This document shows, in pieces, positions 2,091-2,989 of a DNA stretch of 64,000 nt. Under the pieces are notes generated by a model, which saw only the letters and a program-made list of their open reading frames with translations, was not told the origin of the DNA and did not search any database. Source of the DNA: a virus; the IMG/VR virus record IMGVR_UViG_3300031455_000001, positions 91,346 to 155,345 of that record. One strand, 5' to 3'. A program made the position numbers and the translations under genes. Within the stretch, counting starts at the first letter, position 1, and each line of letters starts with the position of its first letter.

Positions 2091-2119
2091 TTGTCAATCC
2101 ATGTAGTTATGTGTAGAAT
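2091..2119 (+). promoter_or_regulatory. Sigma-A-type promoter driving a non-coding region
   Basis: TTGTCA-17bp-TAGAAT. Confidence 0.6.
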
Positions 2120-2125
2120 GAAAGA

Positions 2126-2910
2126 CAAATAAAAAAATAAATAAAAAAAAACGAAAGGATTCGCACTCCTTTCGCTCACCACCAAAAGTGGATGTGATTC
2201 GCACTCACGCAAATCCACAAAAAAACACCACAAAAACCAAAATCAAAACCAAATATATGACTTTATTATAAATGCTTATATAAGAAATTGCAACACTAAA
2301 ATTAGCATTTACATAATTTTCATGGTGGTGAGTGAAACAGGCGAATCCTTTCCTATACGGAAGGGATATTTGTGTTTCTTCCACATGGAATTGCCTGTAC
2401 ACCATGTAAAAAACTGTTTGATTTGGAAGAAATCGTGCATAATGTCCTTAGTAGGCGTTTAAAATATCTTCCACCCGCCTGATTATTCCTATTCATATGA
2501 GGGCGGTGGTGGTCGCTACCATTAAAGGCGAGGGCGGTAGACGTTGTGATCAAGGTCACAGGTCGTCTTATCTGTTATCATTCTAGGGGCGTTTTTAGAA
2601 TGGGATAAGGCTCAACGGAAGTTGAAAAGTCGAATAGGTTTATACATACGGATACCTGTTAATGCTCCCGATTTTCAGATGAGGAACAGTATAAAGATTT
2701 TGACTCTATGTTGACATCATTTTACATTTAATTGTATTTTGTTGCCAACATAGGGTCAAAATCTTTTTTCCAGCCGTTTCCAGTTCGCAACCCATTTTCA
2801 GAAGGGGTAAACCTAAAAGTCAAGAGCATAAAGAACTAAATAAACAATTTTTATGCTAAATAAGAGCATTGTAGGTTTGGATAACCACTATAAATATATA
2901 GTGGTATATA
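2126..2910 (+). ncRNA. Candidate large structured ncRNA (~780 nt), family unknown
   Basis: Many nested inverted repeats (e.g. 2154-2184/2323-2352, 2693-2713/2746-2766) whose imperfections are mostly G-U pairs on the + strand; promoter upstream; no credible ORF. Confidence 0.6.
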
Positions 2911-2960
2911 TAGAGAGTATAGGAAATGTAGAAATTTAAAGAGAAATTGACTCTGATATA

Positions 2961-2989
2961 AGTATACCATAATATTTTGCATTTGTAAA
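2961..2989 (-). promoter_or_regulatory. Sigma-A promoter convergent with the 2126-2910 RNA
   Basis: TTTACA-17-TATACT with extended TG on the minus strand. Confidence 0.6.

Follow-up and report, generated by a model that had tools for sequence, protein, structure and literature searches.

The window analysed here, 64,000 nucleotides in length, is the last 64 kb of a viral contig of 155,345 bp in total (IMG/VR record IMGVR_UViG_3300031455_000001, positions 91,346 to 155,345), and its proteins share 41-65% identity with their counterparts in Tsamsa-like Bacillus siphophages. Genes lie on the minus strand from position 1 to ~4600 and on the plus strand rightward of ~5000. The stretch from 1968 to 3798 is the longest in the whole genome to lack an open reading frame (ORF) of at least 70 amino acids, and its left part, an island at 1968-2993, is the subject of this study: by its predicted folding and its homologues it is a real, conserved structured RNA of ~750 nt (2126 to ~2870, plus strand). 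An original prediction, made without database searches, had proposed a noncoding RNA of ~780 nt at this place, bracketed by convergent promoters, and had described the island as G+C-enriched and free of credible ORFs. The description holds, as the island contains short frames only, none of those tested matched a PHROG family, and the G+C content is 0.37-0.45 at 2300-2700 (peak 0.43-0.45) versus 0.25-0.33 in the flanks. A tRNA search of window positions 1-8000 found none, and models of introns (group I as well as group II), tRNA and tmRNA had no match in the region, in agreement with the proposed absence of group I, group II and tmRNA cores.

Folding of 2120-2900 on the plus strand yielded -219.8 kcal/mol versus -165 ± 7 for dinucleotide shuffles (z = -7.7), a comparison that had been named as a check of the candidate; the minus strand also folded better than its shuffles (z = -5.5). 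In 160-nt windows sliding over 1-6400, negative z values of both strands were concentrated at 2081-2960 and the flanks were mostly near 0. The minimum-energy fold contains the whole set of helices first listed for the island, and the arms 2170-2184/2323-2337 and 2693-2729/2730-2766 are also found as inverted repeats. The number of G-U pairs in the single-sequence folds (27 versus 18) does not settle the strand, given that it comes from one sequence.

Exploring the databases for homologues, we found no phage match to the island by blastn at default threshold, and searches with the neighbouring proteins showed that the flanking proteins are without near relatives. Blastn at E up to 10 revealed a single match of 55 nt (E = 5e-4) in Bacillus phage C30-2, whose first 1.6 kb carry no ORF of at least 50 amino acids. 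The two sequences align in blocks over ~850 nt that include the plus-strand promoter (GTGTAGAAT), and one of the aligned hairpins shows a compensatory change of A-U to G-C beneath an identical loop. The hairpin loop sequence used as a query returned six IMG/VR matches, five of them true homologues on phage or prophage contigs; the sixth (L011) was coding sequence and was excluded. A G+C-richer homologue used as a query detected 100-105 plasmid records. The Bacillus cereus group accounts for nearly all of them and Peribacillus, Planococcus and Pseudalkalibacillus for one each, and the matches lay over no annotated gene in all of the listed records but one. The same query matched 18 of 401 sampled Bacillales genomes. 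Three pattern searches added no members: the twin-loop pattern of the leader (see below) matched nothing but a repeat within coding sequence of an unrelated contig, a doubled AUUUUCAGA-loop pattern had no match, and the pattern of the conserved hairpin P1 gave chance matches only in species-representative genomes and JGI metagenomes.

Scanning of 2091-2989 against Rfam 15 gave nothing at gathering score, and at E up to 10 produced only chance miRNA-like matches to one long hairpin, leaving GOLLD, ROOL, OLE, HEARO and raiA unmatched; the homologues were likewise without Rfam matches. No description of the family was found in the literature searched. The RNA thus forms a family, carried by plasmids and phages of Bacillaceae, for which Rfam 15 has no model. 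Of the two classes originally suggested for the candidate, the first, a GOLLD or ROOL RNA, is excluded by these scans, and the second, a new class, is the one that stands.

To characterize the structure, we aligned 16 sequences with MAFFT (alignment A3; mean column identity 55%) and derived a consensus with RNAalifold. The consensus comprises 92 pairs, with 95.3% of cells canonical and compensatory changes in 51 of the pairs (45 by the tool's own count), which bears out the covariation among homologues that had been named as a further check. Sliding the 3' partners by 1-3 columns reduced the canonical fraction to 40-46% and the compensatory pairs to 13-24, and column shuffles of A3 reached a maximum of 85.5% canonical. 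RNAalifold gave A3 -75.2 kcal/mol on the plus strand versus -32.3 on the reverse complement. When the plus-strand pairs were mirrored to the minus strand, the canonical fraction fell to 79.5%, because 242 plus-strand G-U cells become A-C. The asymmetry in energy together with the loss of mirrored pairs therefore places the RNA on the plus strand of the window. The original prediction had reached the same strand from the G-U pairs of the window alone, an argument that the homologues now sustain.

The conserved part of the RNA is a core of ~490 nt. A profile search with nhmmer detected the core of the window at E = 4e-113, with a profile whose alignment includes the window itself, and the family blocks (the P1 loop AAUUGCCUG, AUACAUACGGA, CCAGCCGUUU and AAGUCAAGRGCA) are all present in it, in order. 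In the stem of P1, an A-U pair is changed to G-C in most members and a C-G pair to A-U in L029, a plasmid of 7.7 kb, and two further members, L032 and L033, also differ in stem sequence. Most helices of the family have a counterpart in the window copy and a few pair only partly, in part because of misalignment. The long hairpin near the 3' end stands at the same place in every class 1 member, each time with a different sequence. Two long-range pairings proposed by RNAalifold, one between the P1 region and the 3' strand of the long hairpin (A3 columns 136-147/632-644) and one between columns 152-158 and 382-388, were rejected because they rest on invariant bases and because both are broken in L032 and L033, in which the local P1 hairpin is kept. 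The core contains open frames, mostly on the minus strand, that vary among members in strand, frame and extent, and a conserved protein was rejected, as the products cannot be aligned as a single protein. Two kinds of repeat in the core of the window are not conserved in the family: hairpins with AUUUUCAGA loops at 2668-2684 and 2791-2807, and the sequence GAGGGCGGU, present at 2500-2508 and 2530-2538. The coordinates of all features are collected in Table 1.

Table 1. Positions in the window of the predicted RNA elements and of neighbouring features.
Feature	Positions	Strand	Basis or remark
Sense promoter (TTGTCA, 17 nt, TAGAAT)	2091-2119	+	10/12; predicted start near 2126
Sense RNA leader, ~260 nt, sequence variable among members	2126-2382	+	predicted antisense target
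Leader hairpin 1, 7-nt loop UUCGCAC at 2160-2166	2152-2174	+	sequence and fold
Leader hairpin 2, loop UUCGCAC at 2198-2204, inner stem GUGA/UCAC	2188-2218	+	sequence
Antiterminator helix, 5' arm, within the predicted antisense target	2154-2184	+	full-length fold; inverted repeat I14
Antiterminator helix, 3' arm, overlapping the 5' half of the attenuator	2323-2352	+	full-length fold; inverted repeat
Putative attenuator: 9-bp hairpin AUCCUUUCC/GGAAGGGAU (2345-2367), then AUUUGUGUUU	2345-2378	+	terminator scan; 5 nt upstream of core
Antisense promoter (TTGCAA, 17 nt, TATAAT)	2293-2265	-	10/12; predicted start near 2258
Predicted antisense RNA, ~118 nt: U-rich 5' tail and two hairpins	2141-2258	-	fold; promoter and terminator bounds
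Predicted antisense intrinsic terminator: 11-bp stem (2177-2149), then nine T	2177-2140	-	ends ~15 nt from sense start
Conserved structured core, ~490 nt	2383-2870	+	alignments A2 and A3; covariation; profile match
Hairpin P1, ACAUGG/CCAUGU, near-invariant loop AAUUGCCUGUACA	2383-2407	+	stem covaries
Hairpin with conserved loop UUCCUAUUCAU	2475-2506	+	12 consensus pairs, 9 compensatory; 9/12 pair in window
Hairpin GACGUUGUGAUC...GUCACAGGUC	2542-2563	+	8 pairs, 5 compensatory; 7/8 pair in window
Hairpin CAUUCUAG/UUAGAAUG, named in the original prediction	2579-2602	+	inner 4 pairs are a covarying family helix
Hairpin UCAAC-GGAA-GUUGA, GNRA-type loop	2612-2625	+	5/5 pairs compensatory; 5/5 pair in window
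Conserved single-stranded block AUACAUACGGAUACC	2643-2657	+	near-invariant in A3
Long hairpin, stem ~21 bp (2693-2729/2730-2766)	2693-2766	+	inverted repeat
Conserved 3' blocks CCAGCCGUUUCC, AACCC, UUCAG, AAGUCAAGAGCA	2770-2828	+	alignment; conservation stops ~2830-2870
Early-type phage promoter (TTTACA, 17 nt, TGgTATACT)	2961-2989	-	10/12; copy of 2002-2030 (repeat D7)
Iteron-like direct repeats (TGATCCAGTTTTGAGTCA type)	3349-3790		repeat families D1 and D5
Perfect host-type parS sites	5854, 6213, 6766 (span 5854-6781)		motif match

Upstream of the core, a predicted promoter would start a leader that folds strongly over its first 137 nt (z = -5.2). To place the signals of the leader, we scanned 21 members in RNA orientation for promoters and terminators and expressed all positions relative to a core anchor. 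A plus-strand promoter was found 288-368 nt upstream of the anchor in seven members including the window, and the same GTGTAGAAT -10 region occurs in phage C30-2 at the corresponding distance. A minus-strand promoter was found 87-129 nt before the anchor in 17 of the 21. Minus-strand terminators near the sense start were detected in L034, L035, L037 and L061 as well as in the window, and one was seen by eye in C30-2. Both promoter sites originally taken to bracket the RNA do score 10/12, but the relevant antisense promoter is the internal one at 2293-2265 and not the one at 2961-2989, and the minus-strand terminator and the attenuator hairpin had been missed. The predicted antisense RNA carries a GUGCGAA loop on each of its two hairpins, the second of which is its terminator, and these loops are complementary to the UUCGCAC loops of the leader; GATTCGCACTC occurs exactly twice in the window.

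The full-length minimum-energy fold forms the long helix 2154-2184/2323-2352, whereas omission of its 5' arm yields the attenuator hairpin instead. A hairpin and U tract matching this attenuator were detected in C30-2, L014 and L034, and the string GCC-UUUUUGU is kept in the other plasmid members. As in ColE1-type control, the antisense gene, with its predicted promoter and terminator, lies inside the sense RNA, in its 5' part, and antiterminator and terminator are mutually exclusive by energy prediction, with the antisense target in the 5' arm. In pT181 and pIP501 the attenuator stands upstream of a rep ORF; here a noncoding core without a conserved ORF follows. The predicted layout of the leader is the logic of countertranscript attenuation, and its conservation supports the antisense control that the original prediction had envisaged.

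Comparison of two near-identical members, C30-2 and L014, revealed 19 differences, 13 of which fall in the stretch of the leader hairpins (L008 413-448), mostly in two hairpin loops, and just 3 in the ~560-nt core. In one loop, TTTGGTCG gives way to its reverse complement, CGACCAAA, and the stem stays the same. The concentration of differences in the loops fits a role of the loops in setting sense-antisense specificity, and inversion of a loop within its stem would keep cognate pairing, abolish cross-talk and switch incompatibility. The far upstream part of the leader of L029 may in addition be exchangeable between replicons; CP023183.1, NZ_CP009717.1 and NZ_CP053983.1 match the L029 query over its first 95 nt alone, at 91% identity, and leave the core unmatched. 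Plasmid pE33L54, a carrier of the RNA, encodes an Hfq RNA chaperone of its own (L066:45144-45299) that could help an antisense RNA to pair with its target.

The genomic contexts of the members point to replication. On the small carrier plasmids (6.9-7.7 kb) there are genes for a resolvase, for helix-turn-helix (HTH) proteins and for unknown proteins. A Pfam scan of the 7.7-kb plasmid L029 found no protein with a Rep domain, and the other three small carriers have no annotated Rep. Neither pCI-14 nor the phage genome has the proteins that the small plasmids have in common, and the partial loci examined in other carriers lack them too; the RNA is therefore the common element found. Plasmids pALH1, pE33L54 and pLVP1401, each of which carries the RNA, have their minireplicon listed as 'NA' (PMC4219350), and the publication of pCI-14 reports that this plasmid resembles no known sequence (PMC2901330). 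The RNA of pE33L54 stands immediately ahead of the record start and adjoins a ParA-like ATPase, and the plasmid has no annotated initiator gene; on a B. luti plasmid, ParA and the RNA are divergent. The plasmid context and the lack of known Rep genes on the carriers support a role of the RNA as a replicon, in the direction of the third reading originally offered, an antisense-controlled replication primer beside the repeats.

In the phage itself, the promoter copies at 2002-2030 and 2961-2989 flank the RNA module on both sides, and Tsamsa has one similar promoter-like sequence (TTGACA, then TGgTATACT) on the equivalent stretch. The duplicated copies suggest insertion of the module at a promoter. 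A transcript starting at 2989 would cross the whole core in antisense, down to the terminator at 2177-2140, and may serve to silence the element in lytic growth. Five host-type parS sites were found in the window (9 matches over both strands; chance expectation 0.02), namely four perfect copies of the 16-bp site (TGTTNCACGTGAAACA) at 5854, 6213, 6766 and 33072 and one with a single mismatch at 15518; three of the perfect sites are 3-4 kb from the RNA. No parB was seen in the part of the window read, and the phage has two tyrosine recombinase genes. Direct repeats follow the RNA in C30-2 (three of the TAGTTAGGGGCTTTAT type, L008:1300-1460), as the iteron-like ones at 3349-3790 do in the window. 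A second strongly structured spot (5681-5920; z about -6 on the plus strand and -2 to -3 on the minus strand) lies immediately to the left of the first parS site, in the control region that is free of genes. Elsewhere, the window has a group I intron at 36875-37170 (79 bits) and five tRNA genes at 31253-33039.

From the family with its structure and strand, the layout of promoters, terminators and attenuator and the genomic contexts, we infer that both RNAs are transcribed, that the leader works as an attenuation switch and that the RNA acts in replication. The reading that we favour, with about even confidence, is that the RNA is the effector of a Rep-independent, plasmid-type replicon under antisense copy control. 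The sense promoter would drive synthesis of the variable leader and then of the core, and the internal antisense promoter would give rise to the countertranscript, which would end by the sense start. The countertranscript would pair with the leader, probably first by loop-loop contacts between its two GUGCGAA and the two UUCGCAC, and would thereby occupy the 5' arm of the antiterminator. The freed 3' arm would let the attenuator hairpin with its U tract form, and transcription would stop ahead of the core. At low copy number the countertranscript would be scarce and the core would be made. The core RNA most likely initiates DNA synthesis at an origin of plasmid type with no initiator protein encoded by the plasmid, and could do so as a primer, by forming an R-loop or by recruiting host factors. 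An origin RNA of this kind would let a temperate-looking phage persist as a plasmid, aided by the nearby parS sites.

Antisense-controlled, RNA-based replicons are a known kind; what is new here are the Gram-positive hosts, the large covarying core and the attenuator in front of a noncoding effector. With the primer RNA II and the antisense RNA I of ColE1 the element shares, as predicted from its sequence, a long noncoding sense RNA with a promoter of its own, an antisense RNA of ~100 nt that is complementary to the sense 5' end and ends by the sense start, stem-loops with complementary loops, and carrier plasmids without an evident initiator protein. It differs in having no sequence or Rfam relation to ColE1 and Gram-positive hosts, in a core that is a conserved multi-helix structure, and in control that is apparently exerted by a terminator-like attenuator before the core, whereas ColE1 relies on primer refolding. 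Transcription attenuation driven by a countertranscript is established for pT181 and for pIP501/pAMbeta1. These plasmids also have Firmicutes hosts, an antisense RNA that targets the leader and an antiterminator that excludes the terminator (in the window, 2154-2184/2323-2352 versus 2345-2367), but their attenuator guards a rep gene and the one described here a noncoding structured RNA of 490 nt.

GOLLD and ROOL are, like this family, large many-helix RNAs of Firmicutes phages and plasmids whose function is unknown, but their covariance models did not match it even at E up to 10, and we know of no dedicated antisense RNA and attenuator for either. The pHT1030 replicon (ori1030) of B. thuringiensis, from a B. 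cereus-group plasmid and ~1 kb in length, was reportedly found by Lereclus and Arantes in 1992 to require no plasmid protein; the published replication region measures 2.9 kb, and vector maps list ori1030 without a rep gene. It may be a member of the family. A further likeness is to the non-RepA mycobacteriophage prophages, in which autonomous replication is supported by a noncoding region of ~600-670 bp that expresses an RNA and adjoins parABS (PMC7157519). Common to these origins and to the element as predicted are a noncoding region of ~600-700 bp that yields an RNA, its place by the partition functions of a temperate phage, and the lack of an initiator gene. The mycobacteriophages belong to another phylum, with no sequence relation expected, and their replication was demonstrated experimentally, whereas the present element is known through its sequence and has host-type parS sites without parAB in the window.

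Several observations weigh against a replicon. In the prophage-type members L009, L010, L012 and L013 the antisense layout was not seen in a simple scan, and the copy in the window is the most diverged of the family, with some consensus helices that pair in part. An HTH protein and an unknown protein of ~210 amino acids, both common to the small plasmids, could be a novel initiator, MOB-suite gives pE33L54 a rep cluster, GC skew shows no clear origin signal, and the large phage may carry a replication system of its own. A diverged chromosomal subfamily of ~430 nt (L044:1380-1800 and 14 like loci; L039-L047 and L055-L060) always lies downstream of a trio of small conserved genes (DUF1659-, DUF2922- and YvrJ-like), and some genomes have it at two places; it folds better in sense than in antisense (RNAalifold -112 versus -74) and has no Rfam match. 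A working origin would be odd at a fixed chromosomal locus, and the fold may thus have another function. Non-replicative tasks have been suspected for GOLLD, ROOL and the long RNAs of phage K, and in the same way the present RNA could be an ornate trans-acting molecule engaged in manipulation of host factors, in counter-defence or in a process linked to sporulation, with the antisense RNA setting its dose only. Besides the chromosomal relatives with their sense-strand folding, this explanation draws on the prophage-type members, in which the RNA lies in the early region by a Cro/CI-type gene and a protein kinase gene with no partition genes seen nearby, and on the abundant early long noncoding RNAs, of unknown function, in large phages (PMC9241854). 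We regard it as rather unlikely, though it deserves serious weight: it leaves unexplained why the RNA is the sole shared element of plasmids without a known replication gene and why it adjoins ParA and parS, and a countertranscript combined with an attenuator and with loops that change fast is the hallmark of copy-number control.

The terminator/antiterminator pair of the leader would also be expected of a cis-acting leader, that is, a very long attenuator or riboregulator of downstream plus-strand genes, and some plasmids indeed have a co-oriented ORF after the RNA (302 amino acids in L062, 117 in L061). These ORFs are, however, non-homologous among members, the next genes in the window are on the opposite strand, and the conserved covarying part is the 490-nt core and not an ORF, which makes a cis-acting leader improbable. 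Even less probable is a minus-strand product of ~810 nt, running from the promoter at 2989-2961 to the terminator at 2177-2140, or hairpins that act as DNA only, as origin cruciforms. All flanking genes are on the minus strand, the promoter resembles the promoter-like sequence of Tsamsa, the terminator is strong and the minus-strand fold, as noted, surpasses its shuffles, but the covariation is asymmetric between the strands (-75 versus -32 kcal/mol), the plus-strand G-U cells turn into A-C mismatches and the C30-2 element is co-oriented with its downstream genes. The slot following the 63-amino-acid phrog_34372 gene holds, in related phages, unrelated protein genes of similar length, as if the island could be a decayed gene, or else a chance G+C-rich spacer without function. 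Comparison with the same slot of Tsamsa, BcoS-136, FADO and 2S-4, which contains protein genes or nothing comparable, revealed no similarity in any frame, and a decayed gene is therefore ruled out. Since widespread homologues carry compensatory changes, gene remnant and functionless spacer are alike already refuted by covariation, and we give them practically no credence.

Returning to the antisense-controlled replicon, a bolder and more tentative form of it, which we think somewhat less likely to be right than wrong, would make the family the first ColE1-like class of Gram-positive bacteria, with a core RNA that does more than prime, attenuator loops that switch incompatibility by inversion, and the missing replicon of many B. 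cereus-group plasmids. In this form, the ornate fold of the core may mark the origin or recruit host enzymes, and phages would borrow the replicon for lysogeny in the plasmid state. The chromosomal relatives hint at a cellular ancestor of the RNA.

With more than 100 members, the family would add a large, well-covarying class to the few big RNAs of bacteria, one with a testable function, unlike GOLLD and ROOL. If the replicon reading is true, the shared RNA origin would fill a gap for the many B. cereus-group plasmids that lack an assigned replicon, including pALH1, pE33L54, pLVP1401 and pCI-14, the last from a chimpanzee anthrax isolate, and would offer a new marker for plasmid typing in the B. 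cereus group; the element could also become a compact vector replicon. Replication primed or activated by RNA, best characterised in enterobacterial ColE1-type plasmids, would then reach into Firmicutes and their phages and would explain how a siphophage of 155 kb may be maintained as a plasmid.

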